NCBI GenBank assembly: GCA_964606285.1
Contig: CAZSFP010000003.1
Span: forward strand, 84,967 to 148,966
From: an uncultured Candidatus Saccharibacteria bacterium
Lineage (GTDB): Bacteria; Patescibacteriota; Minisyncoccia; Phycocordibacterales; UBA9973
Direction of reading: 5' to 3'
DNA length: 64,000 nt
Shown here: piece after piece, positions 4,605 through 23,186 of the stretch
Layout of the letters: each line of letters starts with the position of its first letter
Numbering within the stretch: the first letter of the stretch is position 1
Translations under genes and position numbers: made by a program
The notes under the pieces: generated by a model
What the model saw: the letters and a program-made list of their open reading frames with translations, nothing else
The model's database searches: none
What the model was told of the DNA's origin: nothing

Positions 4605-4639
4605 ACTAAGCACTAAAGACTATCGACTAAAGACTGAAT
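4605..4639. repeat. heptanucleotide-periodic tract (ACTANNN x5)
   Basis: ACTAAGC ACTAAAG ACTATCG ACTAAAG ACTGAAT between terminator and clpP stop. Confidence 0.45.
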
Positions 4640-4640
4640 T

Positions 4641-5231
4641 CTACTTGCTGCTTTTTGATTTCGTAATGATTTCATCAACGATACCGTATTTTTTCGCTTC
4701 TTCCGCACTCATCCAACTATCGCGTTCGACATCGGACTCGATCTTTGAAAGCTTTTGTCCGGTGTTTTTTGCGAATATGTCATTTAACTGTGCACGAAGT
4801 TTAACGATATGTTTTGCAGAGATTTCGATATCGGAAGCTTGCCCTTCGGCACCGCCAGATGGTTGATGAATCATTACTTCAGCATTTGGAAGGACAAAAC
4901 GTTTGCCTTTTTGACCACCCGCAAGAAGGAAAGCCCCCATAGATGCTGCCATCCCGATACAGATAGTTGAGACATCTGGTTTGATGAACTGCATGGTGTC
5001 ATAGATCGCAAGTCCGGCAGAGATGGATCCACCTGGAGAGTTGATGTAGAGCTTGATGTCCGCTTTCGGATCTTCATTTGCAAGGAAGATGAGCTGAGCG
5101 ATGACAATGTTTGCCATATGATCATCGATCGGACCGCCGAGGAAAATGATACGGTCACGAAGGAGGCGTGAGTAGATGTCATATGCGCGTTCGCCCATTG
5201 GGGATTTTTCGATAACGGTTGGGATTAACAT
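4641..5231 (-). CDS. clpP: ATP-dependent Clp protease proteolytic subunit
   Basis: Full-length ClpP: ...[45 protein letters not shown]...MIHQPSGG... Ser-His catalytic context. Confidence 0.95.
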
Positions 5232-5281
5232 AAGTGTAAATAATTTAAAGTAATAATTGGTTGAATGTTTATTTTACCATA

Positions 5282-6325
5282 TTAGCGGCTCTCCAAAAAT
5301 GCAAAGACCTTTTCGTTGGCGAGCATCATTGCTGCGTACGCTTGGAGACGCATTGGGTCAGCTGATGCATACATTTCACTTAATTTCTTTACTTCAGTAT
5401 CTATTTCTTCTTGAGTTGGTTCAAGTTTTTCATTTTCTGCAATTTTTTGAATCGCGAGTTGGAGCATGACGCGCTTGCGGGCATCAGTTTCCCATTCTTT
5501 TTTCAAATCATCTTTGGTTTTTTGGATATGTGTCAGATAATCGTCAAATTTCATGCCCATGCGTTCGATGTCTGTCGTCATAGTGTGAAGCATTTTGTCG
5601 AGCTCGGCATCGATGAGGAGAGCAGGGACATCAGCAGATGTTTCTGCAATTATTTTTTCAACGATTGCAATGCGGTGTTTTTCATGATGACTTTTTTCTT
5701 TGTCTTCATTCATATTTTTTCGCATTTTTTCTGTAAAGTCGGCAACGTCTTTGAAATCACCGAGTGTCTGTACAAATGCGTCATCGAGTTCCGGCATCGG
5801 TGCATCATGATCATGAGATGGCTCCTCTCCCTCTTTGTCATTTTCTTTGTGGTGTTTCATGTGGCGGACGCGTTCAATCGCTTTTTCCATTTCTTCGTCA
5901 GTAACAGCTTCGACAGTGCCTTTGTTTTTGTTTTCTTCTTTGGCGATTTTTTTGTAGTCGGGGAGTGTGACTTCGGGGATAACTGCGGTTGTGATTTTGA
6001 AACCGAGTGGATTGCTGGCTGCAAGTTTTGTAATCATGACTTGTGGTTGACCGATCGCGTCGATTTTATTTTCTTTCATGATTGCGGGATATATTTCAGC
6101 GATCGCATATTCTGCCATTTCTTGGAGAATAGCATCCGGAGTGACATTTTTTTCTACCATATCGATCGGCGCTTTTCCTTTGCGGAATCCCGGAATTTCT
6201 ATTTGGGCAGCGATATATTCGATCGCTTTCGGACGATATGCTTCAAATGATGCACTATCCAATTCGCCCGCTAATTCGACGAGTCCGTGTGGTTGTTTTG
6301 TGATTGTTACTGCTGGTGTTTTCAT
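5282..6325 (-). CDS. tig: trigger factor (short form, no obvious PPIase domain)
   Basis: N-terminal ribosome-binding signature IPGFRKGKAP; located directly upstream of clpP (tig-clpP synteny). 347 aa is shorter than the canonical ~430. Confidence 0.75.
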   Translation of the reverse strand: MKTPAVTITKQPHGLVELAGELDSASFEAYRPKAIEYIAAQIEIPGFRKGKAPIDMVEKNVTPDAILQEMAEYAIAEIYPAIMKENKIDAIGQPQVMITKLAASNPLGFKITTAVIPEVTLPDYKKIAKEENKNKGTVEAVTDEEMEKAIERVRHMKHHKENDKEGEEPSHDHDAPMPELDDAFVQTLGDFKDVADFTEKMRKNMNEDKEKSHHEKHRIAIVEKIIAETSADVPALLIDAELDKMLHTMTTDIERMGMKFDDYLTHIQKTKDDLKKEWETDARKRVMLQLAIQKIAENEKLEPTQEEIDTEVKKLSEMYASADPMRLQAYAAMMLANEKVFAFLESR

Positions 6326-6362
6326 GTGTGGTTTACTTATTTTTATCGTGCCAGTCTAGCAT

Positions 6363-6392
6363 AAACCCCCTGTTTTTGAAACAGGGGGTTTA
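6363..6392 (-). terminator. intrinsic terminator
   Basis: AAACCCCCTGTTTTTGAAACAGGGGGTTT hairpin just 3' of minus-strand gene ending at 6409. Confidence 0.5.
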
Positions 6393-6408
6393 TGGATTTT
6401 TGTTTTGA

Positions 6409-6831
6409 TTAAAAGAAGGTTTTGAAGAATCCTTTTATTTTTTCGAATGTCGATTTTTGAGCTGGGGCTGCCATTGTTGCCGTTGGTGCTTTCTTGTCTT
6501 TTTTGAGTTCGAGGCGCATGTTCTCGCGCTCGTTCTTTTGTTTGAGGCGGAATTCATCGCGTTTCTTTTTGATGATGTTGTCTTCCTCATTTACGATGAT
6601 CTCTGTATCAGTGCCGACTGTCTCATCTGTTTTACTATCTTCGTTGACACTGTCTTTTTTGTCGTCAGTTAGAGTTTTTGAAACATCTGTAGATTGTTCG
6701 TCGATTGAAATAACGACACTGTCAGCAAGCGCGTCGACTGGAGGAGTGGTATTTTCCGGGATAAGTGTTGCCCCGGCGAGGACTGGAACAGCTGCAAAGC
6801 CGGCAACAAGTAAAATAAGATATTTTTTCAT
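6409..6831 (-). CDS. secreted/lipo-like hypothetical protein
   Basis: Signal peptide MKKYLILLVAGFAAVPVLAGA followed by acidic, lysine-rich low-complexity region. Confidence 0.5.
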   Translation of the reverse strand: MKKYLILLVAGFAAVPVLAGATLIPENTTPPVDALADSVVISIDEQSTDVSKTLTDDKKDSVNEDSKTDETVGTDTEIIVNEEDNIIKKKRDEFRLKQKNERENMRLELKKDKKAPTATMAAPAQKSTFEKIKGFFKTFF

Positions 6832-6864
6832 ACGGGAGTATACTACCATAGAAACAGAAAAAAG

Positions 6865-6894
6865 AAAACCCTGATTTAAACAAATCAGGGTTTT
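6865..6894 (-). terminator. intrinsic terminator
   Basis: AAAACCCTGATTTAAACAAATCAGGGTTTT after ppa stop. Confidence 0.5.
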
Positions 6895-6911
6895 CTCCTT
6901 TAAAAATAAGG

Positions 6912-7499
6912 TTATTTTGCAAGTTTTGGAGCGTACTCTTTTTGGTATCTCTCAGCGCACTCTTTGATTATCTGAGCGGCTTCGTCTTTGCCAAAAAATC
7001 CCAATACTTTGCAGGTTCCTGGCTTTTTGAGGTCTTTATAGTGCTCAAAATAGTGTTCAGTCTCTTTTTGCCAGTGATCACCGAGATCTTTGTAGGTATC
7101 GATGTGATCCATTCGTTTGTCATCGGCGAGGACAGTGATGACTTTGTCATCACGCTCACCGCCGTCTTCGAATTTCATGATACCGATGACGCGCACTTCA
7201 GCGAGAGATCCTGGTACCAATGGTTCAGTGACATTTGCAATGATGAAATCAAGCATGTCATTGTCCTGATCCCATGTCTGCGGAATAAGTCCGTAGGCGA
7301 CAGGGTAGGTCAGTGATGAATATCCGACACGATCGAGTTTGAGTTGTCCGGATTCGGTGATGAATTCGTATTTGTTGATTGAGTTGGTGTTGATCTCAAC
7401 AAGTCCGTGAACGATACCTTTCGCTTCATCAGCGTATGGTGTGAGGACGTGCAACAAGTTGAGCATGTATTTTGATGGTTCGTGATTGATGTTTGCCAT
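6912..7499 (-). CDS. ppa: inorganic pyrophosphatase (family I)
   Basis: Family-I PPase motifs: ...DNDMLDFIIANVTEPLVPGS...KFEDGGERDDKVI... Confidence 0.9.
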   Translation of the reverse strand: MANINHEPSKYMLNLLHVLTPYADEAKGIVHGLVEINTNSINKYEFITESGQLKLDRVGYSSLTYPVAYGLIPQTWDQDNDMLDFIIANVTEPLVPGSLAEVRVIGIMKFEDGGERDDKVITVLADDKRMDHIDTYKDLGDHWQKETEHYFEHYKDLKKPGTCKVLGFFGKDEAAQIIKECAERYQKEYAPKLAK

Positions 7500-7534
7500 A
7501 GAACAGGTAAAAGGTTAGAGAGATAAGGTTATAG

Positions 7535-8833
7535 TTATTTTCCAGCTTCTTCTGTTTCTTCAACGGCTTCTGCAGGAGCTTCTGTTGCTATTGATTCTTC
7601 TACTACTTCAACTGGGTCAGCGTCTTTTTCTTCTGTTGATTCTTCGGTTACATCTTTTTTCAAATCTGCGAGAGAAACGAAACCGTCTTCTTCTTTGTTT
7701 TCATCAGATGAAATCATATCACTTGAACTGACGCCTTTGATATCGATTCTCCAGCCAGTCAATTTTGCGGCGAGGCGAACGTTTTGTCCTGCTTTACCAA
7801 TGGCGAGTGAGAGCTGGTCATCCGCGACATCGACGCGTGCGGTTTTTTGTTCCGCATCAATGACGATATCGAGAACCTTTGCAGGAGAGAGTGCCTTGGC
7901 GACAAACGTACTTGGGTCTTCTGACCACTCGATGATATCGATTTTTTCACCACCGAGTTCGCTCATGACAGTCGTAACACGGATACCTTTCTGACCGACA
8001 CAGGATCCGACTGGATCGATGTTTGGGTCTGTTGTTGCAACCGCGATTTTTGATCGAGCGCCTGCTTCGCGGGCGATGGATTTGATTTCGACGACACCAC
8101 TGGCAACTTCCGGTGCTTCCATTTCAAATAATTTCTTGATCATTTGTGGATGGGTACGAGAAAGTCGAAGAGTAACGCCACGTGGACCTTCTTCGACATC
8201 ATAGAGATATGCGCGAATACGTTCACCACGATGAAAGATCTCACCGCGAATTTGTTCTTGTGGGAGAATGATGCCGGTTGCACGGTTGAATTCAACAGTG
8301 ATGATGCCGCGCTCCATTTTTTGGACGATACCGCTGATAATTTCGCCTTCACGTGTACCGAATTCATCGAGCACTGCTGCTTTTTCTGCATCACGGATTT
8401 TTTGAATGATAACTTGTTTTGCGGTCTGCGCTGCGACACGACCGAAATCTTCTTTGAGTTCAAGAGGAAAGATGAGTTCGTCTTCTATCTGTGCATCACG
8501 TTTGATGATATGTGCATCTTCGAGGAGAATATGATGTTCTGGATTGAATCGAGTTCGTTCATCGCCTTCAGGACGGATTTCCTCTTCTTCGCTTTCTGTA
8601 TCTTTCGGCATATAGACGGTCGATTCATCCACGACGATTTTCACCTGGTAAAACTCTGTTTCCCCAGTGTCCATGTTGAAGTGGGCACGAACGATCTGGC
8701 CTTTCTTGCCGTAATCCTTTTTGTAGGCAGCGGCAAGGGCTTGTTCGATGGCTTCTATAATTTTTTCTTTTGGAATCTTGCGTTCTGTCTCGAGTTGTTC
8801 GAGCGCAAGCTTCATTGTTTTAAGGTCTAACAT
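7535..8833 (-). CDS. nusA: transcription termination/antitermination factor NusA
   Basis: NusA N-terminal domain, S1 and KH domains, acidic C-terminal tail; 432 aa. Confidence 0.9.
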   Translation of the reverse strand: MLDLKTMKLALEQLETERKIPKEKIIEAIEQALAAAYKKDYGKKGQIVRAHFNMDTGETEFYQVKIVVDESTVYMPKDTESEEEEIRPEGDERTRFNPEHHILLEDAHIIKRDAQIEDELIFPLELKEDFGRVAAQTAKQVIIQKIRDAEKAAVLDEFGTREGEIISGIVQKMERGIITVEFNRATGIILPQEQIRGEIFHRGERIRAYLYDVEEGPRGVTLRLSRTHPQMIKKLFEMEAPEVASGVVEIKSIAREAGARSKIAVATTDPNIDPVGSCVGQKGIRVTTVMSELGGEKIDIIEWSEDPSTFVAKALSPAKVLDIVIDAEQKTARVDVADDQLSLAIGKAGQNVRLAAKLTGWRIDIKGVSSSDMISSDENKEEDGFVSLADLKKDVTEESTEEKDADPVEVVEESIATEAPAEAVEETEEAGK

Positions 8834-8900
8834 ACTAGTAAGTAGTACGTAGTGAGTAGCAAGTAGTTATATACAATACTACACAATACATACGTTATAT
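8834..8900. repeat. heptanucleotide-periodic tract (AGTAGNN / ATACNNN)
   Basis: CTAGTA AGTAGTA CGTAGTG AGTAGCA AGTAGTT ATATACA ATACTAC ACAATAC immediately upstream of nusA start. Confidence 0.35.
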
Positions 8901-8910
8901 TAAATTGTTT

Positions 8911-9003
8911 GTAAAAATGGTCCGCCCAAAGGGCGGACCAACACACGGACAATATACCATATCTTTTCAAAAAACAAAATCCCCCATTGGGTGGGGGATT
9001 TTG
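8911..9003 (-). terminator. tandem intrinsic terminators (two hairpins)
   Basis: TGGTCCGCCC-AAA-GGGCGGACCA (8918-8940) and AAAATCCCCCATTGGGTGGGGGATTTT (8977-9003) 3' of minus gene ending 9030. Confidence 0.5.
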
Positions 9004-9029
9004 CCGATTGAGACAAAGATTGTTCTGTA

Positions 9030-9440: not shown

Positions 9441-9492
9441 ATGATTTGTTTTTATTTCGTATTATTGCGGACGACTCCGCAGAGCTATATTG

Positions 9493-11822: not shown

Positions 11823-14800
11823 ATGCCAAAAGAACAACCACCAAAAGCACCAAAAGTTAGCGATATGGAAAAAGCAGAACTCGAACAGGAGCTGAAAACC
11901 ATTGAGAAAGCTATAAAATTTGCAAAGACCCGTGAAATTCTTGAGAAATGTTTGATTAAAGCAAAAGGGAAATCTTTTGAATCACAGGTCAAGAAGGCAG
12001 TTGCTGTGCAGTATGATGCACTGGTGGCAAGACTGAATATCAAAGACAATAAAAAAGACATCAAGAAATTCAAGGAATCGTATGGTGTTGATGAAAAATC
12101 TCTCGCGGCTCTTTCAGATGAACCAATAACACCATCTGCCTCTCCAGAACCAGTGGCAATTGTTGCTGCTACTGTGGAAAATAAATCTCCTGAACAAAAA
12201 ATTGCAGACGAATTAGCAGAGCGCGGTTTTTCAAAAAAATCTCTTGGTCCGATTGTCAAAAAGTATGGACCAGGTACTGAGAAGAAATTGCACGCATCGG
12301 GCAAGACGTACGAAGAATACAAAAACTTAAAACCCGCAGAAAAGAAAGAAATTTTTGAAACAGTTGCTGGATCTTCTGATCCCAAAGAAAAAAATGTCCC
12401 GATTGTTGACCCTGAGTTAAAAAATACCGACGTTGAAATACAAAAGCTCGTACTACGGTATCATTATTTAAATGACATGCTGTTCGGTAAAGACAGTACA
12501 AACCTTTCTCCTGTCGTAAAAGCGGCACTGCAAAAAGAATGGGATGAATTTAATTTTGCGCACACTGACATCGTAAAAGCTGAAAATGCACGGTATGGCG
12601 TATCTCCAGATGGATTCCGTATGAATAGTGAAAAGAACTGGCAGGAACTCAAAGAACTTGGGTATACCGCACAAGATGCGATCAAGTGGACAAAATACGA
12701 ATATGAGACAATTTTAAATAACAAAATCAAAAAAGGTGAACCTATTCCTGTACCAGTTGCTCCAAAAGTAAAAGCAGTAGAGCCGGCAGGAAAAATCTTG
12801 TCACCTGAACAAGCAAAGGCGCAGCTCGATCTCAAAGATCGTGGTTTTCCATATGAATATGTCAAAAGTCTCCCAGAGGACAGTCAAAAGAATCTCGCGG
12901 CGTCTAATTTTGTATATCAAACATTTCAAAAACTCAGTCCTAGTGAACAATCTGAGGTATTTCGTGGTGAAAAGAAATTTGAAACGATAAGTACTGCAGA
13001 GGCACTTGCGAATATCAATAAAAACTACGAAGTCACTGATGGTGATTTGGATAGAATATTGTCTAATCTTGATTATGACAATAAAACCTTGAAGGGTATG
13101 AATAGGGAAGAAAAAATGAGTGCCGCAGAAGCAATTCTTGAAGGTGGATTGACCATGCTTGGATATACCAAAGAAGAAATAGACGCTATGCAGCTTCGTC
13201 GTAAAGCGGTGATTGTGAGAATGGGAACAAAAAAAGAAGAAAAAAAGGTGGTTGTGGAACCAGCGGTTAAAACTCCTGTAGTAGTAGAAAATGTTTCAAC
13301 AGAAAAAGCGCTCAAAGATCTCAAAAAACGTGGTTTTGATCCCAAGAAACTTGCAAAGATGCCCGCTGATAGACTACAAAAACTTCATGCATGGGGCGGT
13401 TCTATAAAAGAATTTGGGCCTATGTCTTCTGATGAGGTCAATGAAAAGATTTTTAATTTGCCGCTTGAAGCTATTGTCTCAGTTGCGGCAGTTCAGCCAA
13501 AAATAGAAAAAACAGAACGGAAAAAATTTACCGAAGAAGGTGACGTTAATTTTGTTACACAAAAATTGTTTGGATACGATGAAGAAAGAATAAAAAGAAT
13601 GCCGCTTGAGCAAAAAAAGAACGATATCAAAATGGTGCTTGAATCAAGTCTTCTCGTTCTCGGGTATACACCAGAAGAAATAGAAAAAATGAGTCTTTTG
13701 GGAAAATTTGTTGTTGTTGAAAATGGTATCAAGAGACTAGAAGATCGTGATTTACAAAAAAAGATTATACGGGAAAAAATTGAAGCATTAGATATTCCTG
13801 TAAAAACTCCCTTGTCTGCCATTATTGATCCTGCAAGTGCGGCAACTATGTCCGAAGCACAAAAACTCGACAATCTTGTCGCTCGCGGATTCAGTCACAG
13901 AAAACTTGCTGAAGACAAGTTTTTCACTTCTGAAAAAATAAATCAATTGTATCTTTGGGGTGGTACATATGATGCATACAAGAAAATGAGTGAAAAAGAA
14001 CAGAATGAAAATATTTTTGGTATACAACAAACACCAGTGAGTCCTGTCAAGCAACCAGATAATCTTCCTGAAAAGAAAATTGATGAAGCACTTCTTGCTC
14101 GTGGATTTGGTAATTGGTATATCGAAAGCATGTCTCCTGAAGACAAAGAAAAAATTCATGCATGGGGTGGCACAAAGGATGTCTATGAAAAAATGTCGCA
14201 AGCTGAGCGCATGGAAAAAGTATTTGGCGAACAAGCATCTCTAGCGCCAACAGGTCCGTCTCTGTCCGCTGCTGACAAAAAGATCTATGATGATCTATTA
14301 GCACTCGGTATTTCTAAAAGAAATCTCGATATGTTATCGCCAGTGGGGTTGAAAGAATTTAAAGAAAGTCTTGATCCTCTGTTTGCCAAAGGGTTTAGTG
14401 CAAAAGATATACAAGATTTGAATAATGAAACATGGATACCAAATGATTTCATGGAAAAACTTGAAGTGTGGGGTGGTACACGCGCTGAATTTTTTGCAAT
14501 GAGCCTCGATGAAAGAAAAGAAAAAGTCTTCGGTATAAAACCACCAGTTACTCCTTCTCCGACACAAAACCCACCAACTCCTGTCCAAGGACCAACAGTG
14601 CCACCAGTTATTCCACCACAAGGTCCGCGACCAAAAACTCCAGCAGAAATATTTGAAATGACATCATATGGTGCATCGTATCTCGATAAGGCGACTGGCA
14701 CAATCTACTTTGTTGAACATGCATCACAACAAAAAGACGGTTCTGTTCTTCTTGAATGCCGACTTTCAAACGGCGGCAAAGGTATGCTTCGCCAAGATAA

Positions 14801-17066
14801 ACTCCTTCATGGACTTGAAATCGGTGCATATGAACGCGTTGATCAGCAAAGATTCCTCGAAGAACAGGTCAATACGACCCGTACTATATATGCGACTGAA
14901 TACAAGGACAATCTCAACAGTAGTTGGTGGAAAAAAGGAGTTGTCCGACCTCTTGCGGGTCTTGGAGAATCGCTCGGTCTTTGGCGTCGTGATAACAAAG
15001 CGTTCTTGAGCAAAGAAGGCGAGAGTGCAAAAGAACGATATGATGCAGCAAAGCAAGAGCTTGCAAAATTTGCCGACAAACGTGTAAAAGAAAAAATCGT
15101 TGATCCTGCGCGAATCAAAAGAATTGAAGATGGTTTGAAACGTCGTGCGGCCGCGAAAGGTGAGAAGATCACTGACGAAGAATTGGCACAAGAAGTGAAC
15201 GCAATCCTTGCTCGGTATCGCCGCACGATTCTCGGTCACGGTATTGCGATCGCAGAAACACGAAAGGTCCACGAGACACAAAAGGGACTCTTCCGTTCAA
15301 CAACAGCTGAAACTATTGGCAAAGCAGTCAAATGGTATGGCGGACTTTCAAAGGCATCAAAATTCGGTATTCGTGCCGGCGTGTACACCCTTGCTGGAAT
15401 TTCCGGTATGGGAGCGGCAGCAGCGCTCGGATATGGTATTTATCGTGGTGCAAAAAGCGTAGCCATGTCTGGTCTTATTGCACAAGGGACACATCTTTAT
15501 CGCGCGACGATCGACAAAGCACTTGTTGGTCTATCAGATTCTTCGATCGCAAAAAAGAAACAAACACTTCAGAATTCTATAGAAAAAGGACAGATCAATA
15601 TTCTCGATTATGAGAAACAGATGTCGAACCTTGGTCTCAAGAAAAACAAACATGATGCAATGCGCCGAACAGCTCAAGTCGGTGTGGCATTCGCACTCGG
15701 CTGGGAATCATATAAAGTCCTCGATCAGATAGAAAATACTGATTGGACAACACCACCAACGCCTATTCCAGATGACACAGAAACTGTTCCACCTGCTCCT
15801 CTTCCTGAGCCACACCCATTTCATCTCGATCGTCCAACTGTTGAATTCTCAAGCAAGGGAGCAATTCGAACATTCCTCGAACTCAAAGAGAATTTGAAAG
15901 ATCAACTCGAAGACCAACACATCGCCCTCAATGATCCAAACTTGCCACCAAGTGTCAAAGAGATTTTGAACGGTGATCCGACAGAACTTGCGATCAAATA
16001 CGATTATTACAATCCAGCTGATACGAATGAAAGCGCACTCCTTACACTTCACGGCAAACTTGGTTTTGACGAAAACATGAACCTCGTGCATATGGAACCA
16101 AACGGCGAGAATACAATCCTTGCTGATGGACACACTGGTGCGCTTAAAGAAGATTTTGGTGGCAAATATATCGACAGTGATTATGGTAAGAACATCGAAA
16201 CAAAAATTGGTAGCCCTGAAGAAGAACTCGAAAAGATGAAACTTGAAGCTGAATCAGAAGGCGTTCCTATCAATACGAGTCCTGAAGAAGAACTCAAGAC
16301 ACTGACTGCTGACAAGCTCACTCCGGATGAAATCCTTGCAAAATCAATGGGGGTTGATCATGTTGATACTGTTGAGTTTGACGGCACTCACGCCAACGGT
16401 TCATTTATATTCAAGTATGATGCGGACAACAATATCACTGGAGGTGGTTTTGAAGGTGACTTCAAGCCGATGGATCTCACCACTTCTCCATATCTTCGTT
16501 CTGGTTGGCAGGAAATAGTCAAAGGTAACACCGAGCTTCCGTTTGGTGAAGCTGAAGAGAAGCTCAAAGAATCACTCAGTATACATGCGACACTCGAAGA
16601 CGCGCGTGCAAATCTTCCAAAAACACCCGATTATGATGATGAGCGTCACTACCTCGACGAACAGATAAAGAAAATTGATGAATCTATTAAAAAGGATTTT
16701 GGACCGATCATCAAAACAGATCTCTCTCAAGCACAGTATGAACAAGTAGCACGAGCACACGGAAGAACATTTATAACCGCTGATGCAGAAAATATATTTG
16801 GCAACAAAATGAAACAATGGGATGAACTCGCTCGCATGCCTGCAAATGTAGCAATGGAAAAAATATACGATGGAGACACTGATCTATACGACAGTTTCTC
16901 TGGCAAGCAAGTCGCATTTATCGAACAAGTTGCCCGACCTTTGATTCTCGAAGGAAATACACCACCACTTGGCTCTGAAGATTTTGCGACATACCTCGCA
17001 CGTCTCGAAGGACGGTCTGCTGAAGTCGCAAAAGTGATGGCTGATCAATATAATCTAAGAGCATAA
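11823..17066 (+). CDS. giant repeat protein (1747 aa) with novel ~50-aa repeats, central hydrophobic hairpin and Pro-rich linkers
   Basis: Single uninterrupted ORF. About 7 copies of an RGF/LGY...HAWGGT..Y.KMS..E..EK[IV]FG module. Pro-rich linkers (PPVTPSPTQNPPTPVQGPTVPPVIPPQGPRP; TPPTPIPDDTETVPPAPLPEP). Hydrophobic hairpin GIRAGVYTLAGISGMGAAAALGYGIY. No signal peptide. Confidence 0.7.
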   Translation: MPKEQPPKAPKVSDMEKAELEQELKTIEKAIKFAKTREILEKCLIKAKGKSFESQVKKAVAVQYDALVARLNIKDNKKDIKKFKESYGVDEKSLAALSDEPITPSASPEPVAIVAATVENKSPEQKIADELAERGFSKKSLGPIVKKYGPGTEKKLHASGKTYEEYKNLKPAEKKEIFETVAGSSDPKEKNVPIVDPELKNTDVEIQKLVLRYHYLNDMLFGKDSTNLSPVVKAALQKEWDEFNFAHTDIVKAENARYGVSPDGFRMNSEKNWQELKELGYTAQDAIKWTKYEYETILNNKIKKGEPIPVPVAPKVKAVEPAGKILSPEQAKAQLDLKDRGFPYEYVKSLPEDSQKNLAASNFVYQTFQKLSPSEQSEVFRGEKKFETISTAEALANINKNYEVTDGDLDRILSNLDYDNKTLKGMNREEKMSAAEAILEGGLTMLGYTKEEIDAMQLRRKAVIVRMGTKKEEKKVVVEPAVKTPVVVENVSTEKALKDLKKRGFDPKKLAKMPADRLQKLHAWGGSIKEFGPMSSDEVNEKIFNLPLEAIVSVAAVQPKIEKTERKKFTEEGDVNFVTQKLFGYDEERIKRMPLEQKKNDIKMVLESSLLVLGYTPEEIEKMSLLGKFVVVENGIKRLEDRDLQKKIIREKIEALDIPVKTPLSAIIDPASAATMSEAQKLDNLVARGFSHRKLAEDKFFTSEKINQLYLWGGTYDAYKKMSEKEQNENIFGIQQTPVSPVKQPDNLPEKKIDEALLARGFGNWYIESMSPEDKEKIHAWGGTKDVYEKMSQAERMEKVFGEQASLAPTGPSLSAADKKIYDDLLALGISKRNLDMLSPVGLKEFKESLDPLFAKGFSAKDIQDLNNETWIPNDFMEKLEVWGGTRAEFFAMSLDERKEKVFGIKPPVTPSPTQNPPTPVQGPTVPPVIPPQGPRPKTPAEIFEMTSYGASYLDKATGTIYFVEHASQQKDGSVLLECRLSNGGKGMLRQDKLLHGLEIGAYERVDQQRFLEEQVNTTRTIYATEYKDNLNSSWWKKGVVRPLAGLGESLGLWRRDNKAFLSKEGESAKERYDAAKQELAKFADKRVKEKIVDPARIKRIEDGLKRRAAAKGEKITDEELAQEVNAILARYRRTILGHGIAIAETRKVHETQKGLFRSTTAETIGKAVKWYGGLSKASKFGIRAGVYTLAGISGMGAAAALGYGIYRGAKSVAMSGLIAQGTHLYRATIDKALVGLSDSSIAKKKQTLQNSIEKGQINILDYEKQMSNLGLKKNKHDAMRRTAQVGVAFALGWESYKVLDQIENTDWTTPPTPIPDDTETVPPAPLPEPHPFHLDRPTVEFSSKGAIRTFLELKENLKDQLEDQHIALNDPNLPPSVKEILNGDPTELAIKYDYYNPADTNESALLTLHGKLGFDENMNLVHMEPNGENTILADGHTGALKEDFGGKYIDSDYGKNIETKIGSPEEELEKMKLEAESEGVPINTSPEEELKTLTADKLTPDEILAKSMGVDHVDTVEFDGTHANGSFIFKYDADNNITGGGFEGDFKPMDLTTSPYLRSGWQEIVKGNTELPFGEAEEKLKESLSIHATLEDARANLPKTPDYDDERHYLDEQIKKIDESIKKDFGPIIKTDLSQAQYEQVARAHGRTFITADAENIFGNKMKQWDELARMPANVAMEKIYDGDTDLYDSFSGKQVAFIEQVARPLILEGNTPPLGSEDFATYLARLEGRSAEVAKVMADQYNLRA

Positions 17067-17399: not shown

Positions 17400-17422
17400 A
17401 GTGGTAATTTAATAAACATAAA

Positions 17423-17452: not shown

Positions 17453-17472
17453 TATAAAATACTTTTTCTTTT

Positions 17473-17596: not shown

Positions 17597-17659
17597 CAGT
17601 GCTCTTTGGATGCAATGCTAAATTCTATTCGTGTCGATTAACTAAGTTTGCTATAATCA

Positions 17660-19603
17660 TTGTCAGTGACTTATCTCAACGGACTCAACGACAGACAAAA
17701 AGAAGCGGTTCTCCATACGGATGGGCCGCTTTTGATCGTTGCTGGTGCCGGTGCGGGGAAGACAAAGACGATTACCAGTCGTATTGCCCACCTCATCCAC
17801 GAAGGAGTACATCCGAGTCAGATTCTCGCGGTGACATTTACGAACAAAGCTGGCAAAGAAATGAAAGATCGCATCCGCACGATGCTTGCGGGTGTCTCAG
17901 GTATGCCATTCGTCTCAACATTTCACGGCCTCGGCGTCTCTATTCTCCGCGAGCATGGTGAGAAGATCGGTATCAAACGGCAGTTCGTTATTCTCGATGA
18001 AAGTGATGCGGTCAATTTGGTCAAGCAATCCATTATCTTTCTCGGACTTGATCCAAAACAACATGAACCCAAAAAATACAAATCTATTATTTCTAAAATG
18101 AAAGGTGACGGCAAGACAGTTGCCGAAATGAAGAAAGATATTTCTTCTTATACGGGCGAGATGGTTGCGCGCATTTGGCAACGATACGAGGAGCTTGCCG
18201 CCAAAGAACATGGACTCGACTTTGATGATCTTCTGACAAAAAGTGTGACACTTCTCCGATTGCCGGATGTGCGCCAGTCATATCACAACCGCTTCACGCA
18301 TGTGCATATAGATGAATATCAGGATACCAATGGTCTCCAATACGAAATGGTGCGATTGCTCGTCGGTCCTGCGAACAATGTCTGTGTCGTGGGGGACAGT
18401 GATCAGACGATCTACAGCTGGCGCGGTGCAAATATCAAAAATATTCTCTCTTTTGAAACCGATTATCCCGGAGCAAAAAAAGTCCTCCTCGAAGAAAATT
18501 ACCGGTCGACGAGTACTATTCTCGCTGCGGCAAATGCTGTCATCGACAAAAACGAACTCCGCCAGGAAAAGACATTGTTTACAAAAAATAGTTCTGGTCA
18601 CCTGATTACACTTGCTGAATGCTACGATGAATCTGCCGAAGCAGATTATGTCGCAGGAGAAGTGCACAAACTATTGCTTGCTGGTGCCGACCCAGAAAAG
18701 ATCGCGATATTGTACCGAGCAAATTTCCAATCTCGTACGTTTGAAGATGCACTGCTTATGGCACAGATTCCATACCAAGTGTTGGGTACAAAATTCTTTG
18801 AACGAAAAGAAGTCAAAGATGTCCTCTGTTATATTCGTGCAGCCCTCAATCCCGTGTCATTTTCAGATATCAAACGTATCATCAATGTTCCGACACGCGG
18901 TCTCGGCAAGACAACCGTCGACAAACTTTTTGCCGCACATGTCGCGGGAACAAAAGCAGAACTGCCTGCACCAACCGAACGAAAAGTTGAACAATTTTAT
19001 GCATTGCTTAGAGACATCAAAACATATGCCGAAACGCATCAACCTTCCGAGCTTGTTCGTTATGTGATTCTCCACAGCGGTCTCGAAAAAGCACTCAAAG
19101 ATGGTAGTGAAGAAGATCGTGAACGACTCGAGAACATTAAAGAATTGGCAACATTGGCAACTAAGTATGACGATGATAGTGGTCTCGGAGAAAAGTCACC
19201 ATTGCTTGGTGTCGAGAAATTACTCGAAGATGCCGCACTCGCGACTGATCAAGATACACTCCTCAAAGATACCAAAGGCATTCGTCTCATGACGGTCCAT
19301 GCATCGAAAGGTTTGGAATTCAAAACCGTATTTATCGTCGGACTTGAACATGATCTCTTTCCGCATGGACGAGGAAATTCTGCCGGCAGGGAAGAAAAAG
19401 AAGAAGAACGTCGACTCTTTTATGTCGCGATTACTCGCGCTGAAGAAAAATTGTATCTGACCCACGCGACCGTTCGCACGATTTTTGGTTCGCGGCAAAT
19501 CCAGGCACCATCAGAATATCTCTACGACATCCCCGAAGAACTTCTCGAACGCACAAGCTTTGGTTCGCGGTATGGAACAACGAGAGTGATACATCTTGAT
19601 TAA
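17660..19603 (+). CDS. pcrA: ATP-dependent DNA helicase PcrA/UvrD family
   Basis: Helicase motifs: GAGAGKTKT (Walker A), DEYQDTN, VGDSDQTIYSWRGA, ...VTRAEEKLYL. Start is a non-ATG codon (TTG 17660 or GTG 17666) just downstream of a TATAAT at 17653. Confidence 0.9.
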   Translation: MSVTYLNGLNDRQKEAVLHTDGPLLIVAGAGAGKTKTITSRIAHLIHEGVHPSQILAVTFTNKAGKEMKDRIRTMLAGVSGMPFVSTFHGLGVSILREHGEKIGIKRQFVILDESDAVNLVKQSIIFLGLDPKQHEPKKYKSIISKMKGDGKTVAEMKKDISSYTGEMVARIWQRYEELAAKEHGLDFDDLLTKSVTLLRLPDVRQSYHNRFTHVHIDEYQDTNGLQYEMVRLLVGPANNVCVVGDSDQTIYSWRGANIKNILSFETDYPGAKKVLLEENYRSTSTILAAANAVIDKNELRQEKTLFTKNSSGHLITLAECYDESAEADYVAGEVHKLLLAGADPEKIAILYRANFQSRTFEDALLMAQIPYQVLGTKFFERKEVKDVLCYIRAALNPVSFSDIKRIINVPTRGLGKTTVDKLFAAHVAGTKAELPAPTERKVEQFYALLRDIKTYAETHQPSELVRYVILHSGLEKALKDGSEEDRERLENIKELATLATKYDDDSGLGEKSPLLGVEKLLEDAALATDQDTLLKDTKGIRLMTVHASKGLEFKTVFIVGLEHDLFPHGRGNSAGREEKEEERRLFYVAITRAEEKLYLTHATVRTIFGSRQIQAPSEYLYDIPEELLERTSFGSRYGTTRVIHLD

Positions 19604-19633
19604 TTAAAAAGTAAAAAATGAATGTGAATTTTA

Positions 19634-19828
19634 CTCCCCTCCTTATTGAGGAGGGGGTAGGGGGTGGTGGTTTTTAATTCAAATCACCACCTCGTCCTTC
19701 GAATACGAAGTCCACTCCTCCTCGAAAAGGAGGAGAGAATATACTGCGTCGCATAAAGCTATGCAGGATGAAATTTACTTCGTAAATTCCAAACAAAAGT
19801 CCCTCTCCATTTGTGTGGGAGAGGGAAC
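19634..19828. terminator. hairpin-dense convergent intergenic region (at least 5 stem-loops)
   Basis: CTCCCCTCC..GGAGGGGG; GGTGGTG..CACCACC; CTCCTCCTC-GAAAA-GGAGGAGAG; AATTTAC..GTAAATT; TCCCTCTCC-ATTTGTGTG-GGAGAGGGA; between pcrA stop and the stop of the minus gene at 19860. Confidence 0.4.
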
Positions 19829-19859
19829 TGTTTGCAAACGTATGTAATCACTTTAATCT

Positions 19860-20597
19860 TTAGTCAGCGTATTCGCGAACAATAGTAATTGTTTCCTTCT
19901 TCATCTTCTGTACCGGAGGAGGAATCACTACTGAACCAGGTGCTCCTGCCATACAAGTGCTTTGCACCAGTGGTTGGCCAGGTGTTACCGCTACAGGTTG
20001 TTGTTGTGTCCCTGCTGCTCCTGTTTGCTGCGGATGATTGTAATGATGGTGTTGAGTATTGTAATTTACAACCTCTTCTCTTCTTGCTGGTCCTCTGCGT
20101 AAGTAACTTATCAGAGATATAAGAGCCCAAACAAGTAAACAGAAAAGAATGAAAGCAAGTAAGCCAAATAATAACTCCCATACCCATGCAGGTATTTCAA
20201 AATTACTACCTCCATTACCGCCTTCATAATTTCCACCACCACTGTAACTGTTGTTACCATTTGATGGGTTAACCGGAACTACTATAGCTGCATTCTGTGC
20301 GGCAAGAGCTGAATCCATGTTGAATTTTCTCCCCTGGTTTTTGAAACCAAAATCTTTTGTTGTAACGTCTTTTTCAATAGGATATTTAATTACTACTGAA
20401 TCAGAATCACAGCTACTGTTGTAGCGAACAATTTTTTTTGTTTTCCAAACCCAGTTGGCGGTTGAATCAGTGTATACTCCGCTGTCACCTTCCAGGTAAA
20501 GGTCTGGGAAGCTAAGAGATTTCTGCTGATTGTTGTTGCTGCAAGATGAGAAAAATAAAGCGATTATAATTGCAATGAACAGATTGAATATTTTCAT
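19860..20597 (-). CDS. membrane-anchored hypothetical protein (lipoprotein-like signal, one internal TM, Q/P-rich C-terminus)
   Basis: MKIFNLFIAIIIALFFSSCS signal/lipobox-like; TM LLFGLLAFILFCLLVWALISLISYL. Confidence 0.55.
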   Translation of the reverse strand: MKIFNLFIAIIIALFFSSCSNNNQQKSLSFPDLYLEGDSGVYTDSTANWVWKTKKIVRYNSSCDSDSVVIKYPIEKDVTTKDFGFKNQGRKFNMDSALAAQNAAIVVPVNPSNGNNSYSGGGNYEGGNGGSNFEIPAWVWELLFGLLAFILFCLLVWALISLISYLRRGPARREEVVNYNTQHHHYNHPQQTGAAGTQQQPVAVTPGQPLVQSTCMAGAPGSVVIPPPVQKMKKETITIVREYAD

Positions 20598-20766
20598 GAC
20601 TGTCTTTTTCCAGTTCGCGTTTGTTTTGGCGCGATATAGTGGCTCCTTAGGGCCTTTATACTGGGAAGTTAATTCTTGTATAGTATAGCATATACACAGG
20701 AATTGTCAAGGATTTTGAACCTTATTTTATAAGGGTATTTTTGCACATAGGCAGGCAAATACAGTG

Positions 20767-20775
20767 TGCTATACT
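20767..20775 (+). promoter_or_regulatory. extended -10 promoter element (TGCTATACT)
   Basis: TG-n-TATACT about 30 nt upstream of ATG 20806; no well-spaced -35. Confidence 0.3.
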
Positions 20776-20805
20776 GGCTCTATTATTATTTAAATTGTTG
20801 TATAT

Positions 20806-21297
20806 ATGGATAAAAAAACAGTAGGGACAATCATTGCATTCGTAATTTTCATCGGCCTCGTCGTCTATGGGCTCGTGTATCAGAAAAAAAGTGATACACA
20901 GATTCCTCCGGCTGATCTTTCATCCGATGTATCACAGCAAACAGAAAAGACACCACCTATGGATTCTCAAAATGAACAACAGTTGGGTATTGAAGTATTG
21001 AAAGCAGGTACAGGCGCAGAAGCAATTGATGGCAAACAAGTGACCGTGAACTACACGGGAACATTTACTGACGGTTCAGTCTTTGATTCATCAATCGGCA
21101 AGGCACCATTTGTCTTTACACTTGGTGCAGGACAAGTTATCAAAGGATGGGACATGGGCGTGAAGGGAATGAAAGTTGGCGAGAAGCGAAAACTTACAAT
21201 TCCATACACACTTGGCTATGGTGAAGGCGGTTACCCAGGTGTTATCCCGCCAAAAGCAACACTTATATTTGAGGTTGAATTGCTTGATGTAAAATAG
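20806..21297 (+). CDS. FKBP-type peptidyl-prolyl cis-trans isomerase (membrane-anchored)
   Basis: N-terminal TM; FKBP domain [18 protein letters not shown]...[30 protein letters not shown]...[10 protein letters not shown]. Confidence 0.85.
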
Positions 21298-21306
21298 AAA
21301 ACAAAT

Positions 21307-21353
21307 CTTTAGAAATACAAAATCCCGCAAAGCGGGATTTTGTATTTCTAAAG
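21307..21353 (+). terminator. intrinsic terminator (22-bp stem)
   Basis: CTTTAGAAATACAAAATCCCGC-AAA-GCGGGATTTTGTATTTCTAAAG. Confidence 0.6.
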
Positions 21354-21381
21354 ATTATAGACTAGGCACTAACGACTAATC
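21354..21381. repeat. heptanucleotide-periodic tract (ACTANNN)
   Basis: ATTATAG ACTAGGC ACTAACG ACTAATC directly after the terminator. Confidence 0.4.
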
Positions 21382-21441
21382 TTCTTGTAATATTTTGTTA
21401 TACTGTACGTCAGGGAGTATATAACAAGTAATATTTTATTT

Positions 21442-22224
21442 ATGGATTATTTCAATCAAAAACCGTATGTTGTGCTCGCGAGTATGGTCGCAGTACCACT
21501 CGCATTGTTCCTCATCGTTTCAACTGTTGTGTCTGGAAGTGAGGCGTCTCGCGCTAGTGCATCTCAGACTATTTCAGTCACGGGTCATGGAGAGGTATTT
21601 GCTGTTCCTGATATTGCACGGATTTCATTTTCAGTAATGAGTGAAAAGAAAACAATTACCGAAGCACAAAAAGATGTGTCAGCAAAAGTAACGAAAGCAA
21701 TTGATGCGCTTAAAGCAAAAGGCATCGCTGAAAAAGATATCAAGACCGAAGGATATAATTCATATCCAAAGTATGAATATCAAAATGTATCCTGTGCAGT
21801 AAATTATTGCCCACCAGGAAAACAGATATTGGTCGGTTATGAAGTAACCCAATCAATTTCAGTCAAAGTTCGTGATGTCGACACCACAGGAGAAATCGTC
21901 GACCTCATCGGTGCGTCAGGTATCACTCAGATTTCTGGCCCAGAATTTGCTATTGATGATGAAGACACATTGATTGCAGAAGCTCGAGAACAAGCAATTG
22001 CTGATGCAAAACAAAAAGCAAGAATTCTTTCACGCCAGCTCCACGTCTCACTTCGCCATATCGTTTCATTTTCTGAAAACGGTGGTGGTATGCCGCCGAT
22101 CATGTATGATCGCGCAGTTATGAACATGAGTGGTGCAGAATCCGCACCAGCTCCAAAGTCTACTCTCCCAACAGGCGAGAACAAGATTACGAGCGATGTG
22201 ACGATTACGTACGAGATTAGATAA
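21442..22224 (+). CDS. SIMPL/DUF541 domain protein (YggE-like)
   Basis: N-terminal TM then SIMPL-type sequence (ISVTGHGEVFAVPDIARISFSVMSE...AKQKARILS...). Confidence 0.65.
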   Translation: MDYFNQKPYVVLASMVAVPLALFLIVSTVVSGSEASRASASQTISVTGHGEVFAVPDIARISFSVMSEKKTITEAQKDVSAKVTKAIDALKAKGIAEKDIKTEGYNSYPKYEYQNVSCAVNYCPPGKQILVGYEVTQSISVKVRDVDTTGEIVDLIGASGITQISGPEFAIDDEDTLIAEAREQAIADAKQKARILSRQLHVSLRHIVSFSENGGGMPPIMYDRAVMNMSGAESAPAPKSTLPTGENKITSDVTITYEIR

Positions 22225-22226
22225 TA

Positions 22227-22329
22227 CAGTCTTTAGTCTATAGTGCTTAGTCTTTAGTAAAACAACCCACTTCAGCGGGTTGTTTTTGTTTTTCACTAAA
22301 GACTATAGACTAGGCACTAAGCACTTGCA
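22227..22329. repeat. inverted pair of heptamer tracts flanking a terminator hairpin
   Basis: CTTTAGT CTATAGT GCTTAGT CTTTAGT then AAAACAACCCACTTCAGCGGGTTGTTTTTG then ACTAAAG ACTATAG ACTAGGC ACTAAGC; arms are mutually reverse-complementary in composition. Confidence 0.5.
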
Positions 22330-22397
22330 TTTTCGTACTATGTCTTATATAGTGTATCTAAGGCGCCCCGGGAGGGCGTTTTAAACTACCAAATTTT

Positions 22398-22574
22398 ATG
22401 TCTATTATTTCATATCTTAAATCAACTCGTGCAGAACTCGTTCATATCAAATGGCCGAGCCGCAAACAGGTCATCTGGTTCACGATACTCGTTATTATTG
22501 TATCTATCGCGTTCGCATACTTCCTCGGCGGATTTGACGCTATTTTTGCAAAACTTTTACAAGCAGTTATCTAA
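22398..22574 (+). CDS. secE: preprotein translocase subunit SecE (58 aa; below ORF-track cutoff)
   Basis: MSIISYLKSTRAELVHIKWPSRKQVIWFTILVIIVSIAFAYFLGGFDAIFAKLLQAVI; single TM; immediately upstream of nusG (secE-nusG synteny). Confidence 0.75.
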   Translation: MSIISYLKSTRAELVHIKWPSRKQVIWFTILVIIVSIAFAYFLGGFDAIFAKLLQAVI

Positions 22575-22589
22575 TCAATTCTATTTTTT

Positions 22590-23138
22590 ATGGCAAAACA
22601 AGAAGTCACAGGGGAACGGCACTGGTACGCGATTCACACATATTCAGGATATGAAAATGCAGTGCTTCGCAATCTTCGTCAGCGTATCGACAGTCTCGGT
22701 ATGCAGGACAAGATCTTTAATGTGATCGTGCCTGTTGAAAAGAAAATCAAAATCAAAGGCAGTAAGCGTGTTGAAGTTGAAGAAAAAATCTATCCTGGTT
22801 ATATTCTCGTGGATATGATCGTGACGGATGACTCATGGTATGTCGTTCGAAACACACCACGCGTGACTGGATTCGTTGGTGCGGGTATCAACCCAGTCCC
22901 ACTACTCCAGAGTGAAATCGATTTCCTTTTTTCTCGTATGGATGGCGAGAAAACTGCGAAACATACAATCGATCTCGAAATTGGTGAAACTATCCTCATT
23001 GCTGATGGTCCGTTCAAGGATTCTGAAGGTCGTGTGTCTGAAGTCGATAGTGAACGCGGTAAGGTCAAAGTACTCGTCTCGCTTTTCGGTCGCGAAACAC
23101 CAGTGGAACTCGATTTCTTGCAGGTTAAAAAGATGTAA
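22590..23138 (+). CDS. nusG: transcription antitermination factor NusG
   Basis: NGN domain (WYAIHTYSGYENAV...) and KOW motif (GETILIADGPFKDSEGRVSEV). Confidence 0.9.
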   Translation: MAKQEVTGERHWYAIHTYSGYENAVLRNLRQRIDSLGMQDKIFNVIVPVEKKIKIKGSKRVEVEEKIYPGYILVDMIVTDDSWYVVRNTPRVTGFVGAGINPVPLLQSEIDFLFSRMDGEKTAKHTIDLEIGETILIADGPFKDSEGRVSEVDSERGKVKVLVSLFGRETPVELDFLQVKKM

Positions 23139-23144
23139 GGGACA

Positions 23145-23186
23145 GGTTAAAGGTGATAGGTACAAGGTTACGGTAAATACAGATAC
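23145..23186. repeat. heptanucleotide-periodic tract (AGGTNNN x4-6)
   Basis: AGGTTAA AGGTGAT AGGTACA AGGTTAC GGTAAAT ACAGATA directly after nusG stop. Confidence 0.45.

Follow-up and report, generated by a model that had tools for sequence, protein, structure and literature searches.

Mirrored heptanucleotide tracts at start and stop codons in a Paceibacteria clade without Shine-Dalgarno signal

The 64 kb stretch of contig CAZSFP010000003.1 analyzed here (in the following: the window) originates from a genome of the Paceibacteria (Parcubacteria, Candidate Phyla Radiation, CPR). It carries a family of short tracts at gene boundaries which are built from units of 7 nucleotides (nt) and occur in two mirrored forms. 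Leaders (class A) are G-poor (xCUA-NNN)n tracts which end 3-9 nt before an AUG. Trailers (class B) are G-rich (NNN-UAGx)n tracts which begin at a stop codon or just past it. The explanation that we favor, with a rough probability of 40%, is that the leaders would be ribosome-loading segments independent of a Shine-Dalgarno (SD) sequence, and the trailers complementary anti-leaders which extend terminators or couple cistrons.

Unit structure, period and distribution of the tracts

For the motif ACTANNNACTANNNACTA (three ACTA-N3 units, at most one mismatch, both strands scanned) 17 matches were found in the window. The chance level, determined from 100 dinucleotide shuffles of the window, was 0.06 matches, and the highest value reached by a shuffle was 1; the tracts are thus far above the chance level. 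A core-agnostic scan of the window for self-matches at lag 7 found the same tracts independently and added two more, at 37699-37722 on the minus strand and at 37817-37844 on the plus strand, each of which abuts a start codon. Among 32 units, positions 1-4 (ACTA) are conserved to 81-91% and positions 5-7 to 41-44% (chi-square p = 2e-5), which upholds the proposed unit of four constant and three variable positions. The five tract loci which had been listed were recovered with exactly the sequences given for them, and they form one non-coding, 7-periodic and non-random family tied to gene boundaries and terminators, in some cases as inverted pairs.

Closer relatives of the window were not found in sequence collections, where the best matches reached 72% (NusA) and 62% (RplJ) protein identity and the next-best SIMPL match about 60%. 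The top matches of NusA (at most 72% identity) are metagenome-assembled genomes of the Paceibacteria/Nomurabacteria type within the CPR, and Logan contigs identical to the window represent the same strain. For comparison, 80 loci around nusA (1.26 Mb) were used together with 80 metagenome loci around rplJ as an independent set (160 in total), and pooled tract counts are based on the 128 loci which reach 4 kb or more. In the nusA set, four CTA copies with period 7 were found 23 times, in the rplJ set 34 times. Periods 4, 5 and 6 gave none in either set, period 8 gave 4 and 1, respectively, and periods 9-12 at most one. The core-agnostic survey gave 102 intergenic tracts at period 7, compared to 21, 21, 11 and 6 at periods 5, 6, 8 and 9. 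In the 128 loci, 70 of 80 tracts are intergenic, although intergenic sequence has a share of only 12.1% (p = 2e-53).

At least one tract is present in 40 of the 128 loci, and the tracts therefore recur across the clade. The suggestion of a genome-specific dispersed repeat does not agree with this, as the same architecture with other unit sequences appears in about one third of the loci, all from relatives which are at most 72% (NusA) or 62% (RplJ) identical. The cores vary among genomes and include ACTA, GCTA, CCTA, TCTA and CTAG, but also GAAT/ATTC, GTAT/ATAC, TAAT and GGAGTAC. Period 7 and the order of a G-rich arm followed by a C-rich arm are broader than the CTA/TAG core. Trailers and hairpin arms with other heptad cores were seen in several relatives (L132 4137-4182; L109 8935-8969 and 10020-10064; L158 696-793; L108 2222-2300), for example (GGAGTAC)n, (AAAGTGT)n, (AARGTAT)n together with (ATACYTW)n and (GAATATN)n together with (TTCAACA)n.

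In a typical tract, 4-5 out of 5 units are different, so that the tracts do not consist of essentially identical units like a microsatellite. Perfect arrays were found in relatives, namely (TAGCAAG)6 in L026 and CTAAAAA x4 in L142, and the unit number differs between L107 and L111. Among viral contigs of IMG/VR (L168-L287), at least 120 contain 6 or more CTA-containing heptads, most of them in near-perfect arrays, and heptamer arrays as such are therefore widespread. Among the matches listed, the viral arrays have 1-3 unit types in 6-21 units; examples of the units are CTAACCA/CTAATCA, CTACTTT, CTAAATC and the telomere-like CCCTAAA, and a few of the arrays end just before an ATG.

Leaders, trailers and their pairing

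Orientation was counted after duplicate loci and palindromic CTAG tracts had been dropped. Of the tracts located at most 20 nt upstream of an ATG, 23 are CTA-sense and 2 are TAG-sense (p = 2e-5), while at most 15 nt from a stop codon 17 TAG-sense tracts stand against 5 CTA-sense tracts. The latter exceptions are short intercistronic spacers which double as the leader of the next gene, or they belong to doubtful small open reading frames (ORFs). The rule is also visible without any calling of tracts: CTA-CTA pairs at spacing 7 occur 117 times in the 45 nt upstream of 1,282 starts (other spacings give about 20), and 71 TAG-TAG pairs with the same spacing lie downstream of 1,602 stops. Whatever the core, leaders contain 9% G and 19% C (C is the more frequent of the two in 33 tracts, G in 5) and trailers 19% G and 9% C. 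Due to this asymmetry, intergenic regions read as a G-rich/TAG arm followed by a C-rich/CTA arm on either strand, including those between divergent and convergent genes. All tracts had originally been placed after stop codons or at terminators. This has to be corrected, as about half of all tracts are 5' leaders abutting start codons.

The distance between the last CTA of a leader and the ATG has its mode at 8 nt and ranges from 5 to 12 nt. A strict phasing of the ATG with the heptads is ruled out by this spread. Stop codons in all three frames were also considered as the sole purpose of the tracts and rejected: TAG is used nearly exclusively although TAA is the common stop codon, periods 4, 5, 8 and 10 would serve equally and yet are not enriched, and many leaders of the ACUAC type carry no sense stop codon at all.

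Leader tracts precede rplJ (at least 11 loci), rplL, rpsJ, rpsC, rpsG, nusA, clpP, ppa, recO and the genes for an H+-PPase and HU (partial). Trailers follow tuf, rplB, rplJ, tig, nusA, clpP, the SIMPL gene and the gene of an MscL-like channel. Inside operons, tracts fill the spacers rpsL-rpsG, rplJ-rplL and tuf-rpsJ. At rplJ, a conserved leader of about 190 nt ends with the tract, which makes up its last 35 nt, and this leader including its tract is 99% identical between two genomes which are 91% identical overall. The tracts in operon spacers and in the rplJ leader speak for a position within transcripts; they argue for a role at the RNA level, at the ribosome-loading site, and against operator-type DNA sites.

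The conserved region 5' of rplJ (L132 1350-1545, L135 3900-4100, L124, L127, L134, L136, L139 and L142) comprises a …CTGGCGGAGGTA… block, TTTGTTTATC and a hairpin. No Rfam family matched these rplJ leaders at gathering and E-value thresholds, and they may be an undescribed L10-leader analogue of the clade. In the 70 nt upstream of nusA, many relatives (L001-L080) show a hairpin and then the conserved motif AAAATTTAATAA(A/C)A, from which only some 5-15 nt remain to the ATG. The nusA mRNAs of these relatives may thus be nearly leaderless. Where a tract is present, the motif and the nusA ATG are separated by the inserted heptad leader.

Leaders and trailers are complementary, and several of them fold with a partner. 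In the window, the SIMPL trailer, its terminator and the downstream arm (22222-22335) form one extended hairpin with a minimum free energy (MFE) of -36.5 kcal/mol (z -5.6); when only the trailer was shuffled, its folding with the downstream sequence gave z -6.2. The nusA leader pairs with the arm at 8868-8900 (MFE -39.5 kcal/mol, z -5.0), and its last two units and the AUG are unpaired in the minimum-energy fold. The rplJ-rplL spacer of the same genome contains a CTAG-type hairpin (z -3.3), the 5' arm of which includes the rplJ stop codon, while 14 nt separate the end of its 3' arm from the rplL AUG. In total, 12 of 21 trailers (about 60%) fold significantly better with the downstream 130 nt than shuffled trailers, their partner being a complementary CUA arm past the terminator or spacer. 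In divergent promoter regions, the two complementary leaders sit on different transcripts.

A Shine-Dalgarno signal is absent in the clade, with GGA/AGG in about 1% of genes per position between -15 and -5 and SD-like motifs in 7% of genes. In start contexts, G drops to 9-10% at positions -10 to -1 and A rises to 46%. The leader tracts are G-poor and contain no GGAGG-like sequence 5-10 nt upstream of the start codon. All loci in which the presence of tracts was compared with SD usage are SD-poor. Parcubacteria lacking the ribosomal protein uL1 are reported to mostly lack the anti-SD motif as well (Tsurumaki et al., PMC9297842). A uL1 gene adjoining rplJ or rplK was not found in any of the 160 related loci; together with the lack of SD sequences this is consistent with uL1-lacking Parcubacteria. 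In the window (23266-24409, likewise in L087 2492-3450), a terminator and a cytidylyltransferase-like gene come after rplK, where rplA is missing. The rplJ-rplL pair is located about 40 kb from rplK, just past the end of the window.

Two further observations touch the translation apparatus. The only window gene seen with a strong Shine-Dalgarno sequence (AAAGGAGGAAACA-ATG) in this otherwise SD-less genome is thyA (25366-26346, minus strand), which lies in a cluster with genes for a dCMP deaminase and DHFR (27870-28385, minus strand) at 24336-28385 and may be a recent acquisition. In two relatives, some 2.7-3.3 kb lie between rplJ and the start of a downstream 23S rRNA gene (L134 10233-11192; L097 10306-10845), with no 16S gene upstream in the locus, and the rRNA genes appear to be unlinked. 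A 16S gene was not present in any related locus examined.

Tracts and neighboring genes in the window

The names of the window genes are derived from Pfam. Around clpP (4641-5231, minus strand), which is neighbored by tig (5282-6325, minus strand), the trailer covers 4605-4643 on the minus strand. It reads UAG(stop) AAUU CAG UCUU UAG UCGA UAG UCUU UAG UGCU UAG U and leads directly into a terminator, and its heptads keep the register of the clpP stop codon TAG (4641-4643). This bidirectional intrinsic terminator (4578-4604) consists of a GC hairpin with an A-run and a T-run and separates clpP from an ORF at 4206-4568 on the plus strand. Between nusA (7535-8833, minus strand) and ppa (6912-7499, minus strand), the intercistronic spacer 7500-7534 on the minus strand comprises exactly five heptads (CTATAAC CTTATCT CTCTAAC CTTTTAC CTGTTCT), followed by the ATG. 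It lies under the CTA detection threshold and, as read by eye, is probably a degenerate leader.

The tract upstream of nusA had been interpreted as a gene-end tract in reverse orientation. On the minus strand, however, 8834-8867 runs straight into the nusA ATG at 8833 and is a class A leader (ACUACUU GCUACUC ACUACGU ACUACUU ACUAGU, then AUG) without a Shine-Dalgarno sequence. The adjacent sequence 8868-8900, described before as ATACNNN units, is actually the complementary 5' arm of the nusA leader hairpin. This G/U-rich arm on the minus strand (GUAUGUA UUGUGUA GUAUUGUA) is complementary to units 1-3 of the leader.

The FKBP gene (20806-21297, plus strand) is followed by a terminator at 21307-21353 with a 20-pair stem, the outer pairs of which are formed by a UAG unit (CTTTAG) and a CUA unit (CTAAAG). 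The CUA arm past this terminator (21347-21381, plus strand: TCTAAAG ATTATAG ACTAGGC ACTAACG ACTAATC) ends 60 nt 5' of the ATG of the SIMPL gene (21442-22224, plus strand), upstream of a TGnTATACT extended -10-like site which was read as a promoter by eye. The SIMPL trailer of class B (22227-22258, plus strand, (NNNUAGU) x4) starts 2 nt past the stop codon and ends at an intrinsic terminator hairpin with a T-run (22259-22293, plus strand). The CUA arm complementary to it (22295-22329, plus strand) is located about 70 nt 5' of the ATG of secE (22398-22574, plus strand). A weak promoter-like site, TTGCAT-17-TATAGT (22325-22353), was seen by eye just 3' of this arm and was not reported by the scan. 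The three central hairpins (4578-4604, 21307-21353 and 22259-22293) combine a GC-rich stem with a U-run as typical for intrinsic terminators, and the heptad tracts are their flanks.

Downstream of nusG (22590-23138, plus strand) and before rplK (23266-23691, plus strand), a G-rich trailer at 23144-23171 on the plus strand reads AGGTTAA AGGTGAT AGGTACA AGGTTAC in the register NAG-GU. Its period, its site after the nusG stop codon and its G-rich, C-poor composition agree with the proposed membership in the family, while of the units listed originally only these first four are periodic. The statistics are weaker for this single locus, with 2 overlapping matches compared to 0.12 expected and 3 of 100 shuffles reaching 2, and there is no fold signal (z +0.8). 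It is probably a degenerate class B member. The two tracts added by the lag-7 scan are leaders. One is the class A leader of recO (37848-38420, plus strand) at 37817-37844 on the plus strand (ACUACAA ACUACUU UCUACUC ACUAGUU UUU, then AUG), and the other, at 37699-37722 on the minus strand (…ACUAAAU ACUCUGU ACU-AUG), is a short leader of an ORF of 162 amino acids (37211-37699).

Beyond the tracts, several other features were observed in the window. At 25317-25374, both of two convergent genes end in GTTCTTTA(A/G), so that their last codons and stop codons make up the outer stem of an extended inverted repeat which encloses a common bidirectional terminator (gttctttaa…actaaagaac). A G-rich stretch, GAGGAGGGGGTAGGGGGTGGTGG, which is unusual at 41% G+C, lies at 19643-19680 just 3' of a UvrD-like helicase gene. 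The window also contains an ORF of 1,747 amino acids of unknown function (11823-17066), and at 62140-63831 it encodes a secreted protein in which collagen repeats (G-x-y tracts) are combined with PTL_trimer and Fib_succ_major domains. Rfam gave no match in the window, and ARAGORN detected neither a tRNA nor a tmRNA there.

Proposed role, alternative explanations and known systems

In the favored explanation, the tracts would be RNA-level building blocks of untranslated mRNA segments in a Paceibacteria clade without SD sequences. They would be transcribed and may affect translation, coupling and stability. Arrays of the G-poor (xCUA-NNN)4-6 type fill the 25-40 nt directly 5' of the start codons of highly expressed genes and, since they are G-poor, would be free of structure and of start codons. 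They could thus act as unstructured, start-codon-free segments for SD-independent loading of ribosomes. The G-rich (NNN-UAGx)4-6 trailers, as the complement of the leaders, would in about 60% of cases pair with a CUA arm past the terminator or spacer. The resulting long, imperfect hairpin would embed and extend the terminator and stabilize the 3' end. Inside operons, such a hairpin would mask the leader of the next cistron until a ribosome reaching the adjacent stop codon melts it, which would couple the cistrons by unmasking. The 7-nt period would probably have originated by slippage of heptamers, as suggested by the perfect arrays and the differences in unit number, followed by selection on the 4-nt core.

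Several points weigh against this explanation. Only about 2-4% of the genes carry a leader tract, which excludes the tracts as the general signal for initiation in the clade. No partner was detectable for about 40% of the trailers (9 of 21), and many leaders have none either, so that pairing is frequent and not obligatory. If termination works, the CUA arm past the terminator is left untranscribed and the extended hairpin would form only in read-through RNA. The close relatives are too few for a formal covariation analysis of the arms. Transcription and function are both deduced from the position of the tracts alone. Finally, the model leaves the period of 7 and the dominance of UA-containing cores (CUA/UAG) unexplained.

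Alternatively, the tracts might be periodic sites for a single-strand nucleic-acid-binding protein with about 7 nt per subunit or domain, such as a bS1 with 3-4 domains, a cold-shock protein or a HutP/TRAP-like ring reading (XAG-N4)n, and control over translation or termination would be exerted by this protein and not by the RNA itself. Such a reader would fit the strict period of 7 with its conserved core of 3-4 nt and free spacers. HutP binds XAG triplets 4 nt apart, in two sets around a GC-rich terminator stem (PMC2425495), and the trailers are (UAG-N4)4-6 arrays immediately 5' of terminator hairpins. The trailer unit GUCUUUA, with four occurrences in the two trailers of the window, is the exact heptamer co-crystallised with CspB of B. 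subtilis, the consensus of which is GTCTTTG/T (PMC7825780, PMC1904285), and the 3-4 S1 domains of CPR bS1 (PMC9297842) are comparable to 4-6 units per tract. However, leaders and trailers are reverse complements, and one reader cannot serve both except at CUAG cores. The specificity would also have to co-evolve, as the cores differ among genomes (ACTA, GCTA, CCTA, TCTA, GAAT, GTAT, TAAT), and the trailers of other genomes are purine-rich, unlike the sites of cold-shock proteins. In 2.9 Mb of partial genomes no homologue of HutP (B. subtilis, tblastn), TRAP or the omega repressor was found, nor was a csp gene or CspB homologue, which is a weak negative. We regard a protein reader of this kind as unlikely.

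A neutral or near-neutral origin, in which heptanucleotide microsatellites arise by replication slippage, survive only in non-coding DNA and then decay, appears rather improbable to us. Heptanucleotide repeats are the commonest long simple-sequence class in many prokaryotes, according to the passage of PMC4679880 which refers to Mrazek 2007. The perfect arrays in L026 and L142, the unit-number difference between L107 and L111 and the near-perfect arrays in at least 120 viral contigs would be expected from slippage, and the stop codon, which is often the first unit of a trailer, suggests seeding by duplication. What slippage does not account for is that divergence is limited to 3 of 7 positions (p = 2e-5), that orientation relative to starts and stops is strict and accompanied by the G/C asymmetry, and that tracts consistently end 3-9 nt before the ATG. 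Moreover, tracts recur at rplJ, nusA, clpP and tuf-rpsJ in distant genomes with different units, and a tract-bearing leader is 99% conserved in genomes of 91% identity.

The tracts might also act as double-stranded DNA. The omega repressor of pSM19035 recognizes 7-bp repeats both as direct and as inverted copies. By analogy, the tracts would be heptad iterons to which a small DNA-binding protein binds cooperatively, and their role would be the marking or regulation of intergenic regions. The tracts are indeed contiguous 7-bp repeats in both orientations. A single reader of double-stranded DNA would account for this and for the G-rich/TAG-then-C-rich/CTA order on any strand, whatever the orientation of the genes, and some CTA arms are located just upstream of -35 boxes (L107, L111 and 22295-22329 of the window). 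Most tracts, however, are not found at promoter or operator positions, and many lie where promoters are unexpected, as in operon-internal spacers of ribosomal protein genes, 150-190 nt into the rplJ leader or in gaps between stop codon and terminator. Their tight abutment to start and stop codons points to a translational and not to a transcriptional landmark, the cores differ among genomes, and an omega-like ORF was not found in 2.9 Mb of partial genomes (a weak negative). Iterons are very unlikely. Still more improbable are mobile palindromes resembling repetitive extragenic palindromic (REP) sequences, bacterial interspersed mosaic elements (BIME) or miniature inverted-repeat transposable elements (MITE), which would insert after genes and carry terminators. 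Inverted arms surround hairpins after stop codons, and a block of about 20 nt (ATAGACTAGGCACTAA) is common to tracts 3 and 5 of the window. In the 64 kb and the related loci, a conserved full-length copy, terminal inverted repeats and target duplications are nevertheless absent, and the order of units is unique for each locus. Arms are often single, without a partner, and in many genomes they lie directly at the start codons of essential genes; the units differ among genomes.

The tracts bear on the question of how start codons are chosen in bacteria without SD/anti-SD interaction, including the Parcubacteria which reportedly lack the anti-SD motif (PMC9297842). They are a sequence-defined feature exactly at the ribosome-loading site of the most highly expressed genes of the clade, with a mirrored partner at the stop codons, and are a candidate for how SD-less cells start and couple translation. 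As short synthetic elements they are accessible to translation, coupling, termination and pull-down assays. In practice, leader tracts can mark true start codons and trailers can mark gene ends where gene callers have no ribosome-binding-site model.

A literature search revealed no paper on such tracts in the CPR, on the degenerate unit of 4 + 3 positions, on the mirrored arrangement of leaders and trailers or on pairs flanking terminators. The class as a whole had been regarded as undescribed; this is too far-reaching, as start-proximal heptamer repeats have been published for Beggiatoaceae, cyanobacteria and Bacteroidetes (PMC4679880) and, near start codons and promoters, for Nostoc (bioRxiv 10.1101/2022.06.06.494920). 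In marine Beggiatoaceae, some cyanobacteria and Bacteroidetes, TAACTGA heptamers occur in tandem with 2-6 copies, mostly in forward orientation and a few nt before start codons (MacGregor 2015, PMC4679880). They replace Shine-Dalgarno sites, also before ribosomal protein genes, and S1, Csp and CsrA were proposed as readers (PMC4679880). The leaders resemble them in their 7-nt units, their position near starts without SD sequence and their forward orientation (23 versus 2, with the last CTA mostly 8 nt away), and ACU(A) stands here where the TAACTGA unit has ACU(G). The unit itself is different, however (ACTANNN, GCTANNN, CCTANNN etc.). The TAACTGA copies are identical heptamers, while the units here are constant at just 4 of 7 positions, with a core that varies by genome. 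Mirrored trailers at stop codons and inverted pairs flanking terminators were not described for the TAACTGA repeats, which belong to other phyla, whereas here the whole clade, within the CPR, is SD-less.

The tracts connect the CPR with cyanobacteria and giant sulfur bacteria, whose heptamer repeats are unexplained. A more far-reaching idea, which we consider doubtful, is that xCUA arrays would be a new kind of initiation signal for highly expressed genes in uL1-lacking Parcubacteria. They would be bound by a periodic reader at 7 nt per module, such as the tandem OB-fold domains of the shortened bS1 or a new factor, and the complementary UAG arrays past stop codons would form an anti-leader system gating re-initiation and termination. 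The TAACTGA/ACUG-type heptamers of Beggiatoaceae and cyanobacteria would then represent convergent or homologous use of the same reader.

The short tandemly repeated repetitive (STRR) sequences of cyanobacteria are long heptanucleotide repeats. These and other long simple sequence repeats (LSSR) share with the tracts the period of 7, a head-to-tail arrangement beyond chance, the intergenic location, clade-specific units and a suspected regulatory role. They are long, near-perfect arrays, which the arrays of the viral contigs resemble, whereas the tracts, with 4-6 units, are short; they are degenerate at fixed positions and follow rules of orientation and composition relative to start and stop codons. 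The omega leader of tobacco mosaic virus is an S1-dependent translation enhancer. In Bacteroidetes, leaders which function independently of SD sequences are G-poor, A/U-rich and unstructured (PMC7797042). Like these, the start contexts of the clade are A-rich, G-poor and without SD sequence; the Bacteroidetes-type leaders, which need a lack of structure, are aperiodic and have no complementary trailer.

Compared to HutP sites, the trailers show the same arrangement of XAG plus 4 nt, that is a period of 7. HutP sites flank the GC stem of a terminator, the trailers lie directly 5' of terminators, and at least three XAG triplets with 4-nt spacing are present at 4605-4643 (minus strand), at 22227-22258 (plus strand) and in 17 related loci. 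Here, however, the arm 3' of the terminator is the CUA complement and not a second XAG set, XAG recurring there only irregularly, and 4-6 contiguous units stand against 3 + 3 in HutP sites. TRAP sites differ by 9-11 (G/U)AG triplets with spacers of 2-3 nt, compared to 4 nt here, and TAG is not enriched at periods 5 or 6. Coupling of cistrons by unmasking of an mRNA hairpin is known from the infC-rpmI-rplT operon of E. coli and from the coat-replicase pair of MS2. As in these systems, a hairpin is predicted to link the upstream stop region with the downstream initiation region in rplJ-rplL, tuf-rpsJ and tig-clpP; the known hairpins, however, are idiosyncratic and not built from heptads. What is new compared to all these systems is the degenerate unit of 4 + 3 positions, the mirrored leader/trailer rule, the pairs flanking terminators and the occurrence in an SD-less CPR clade.

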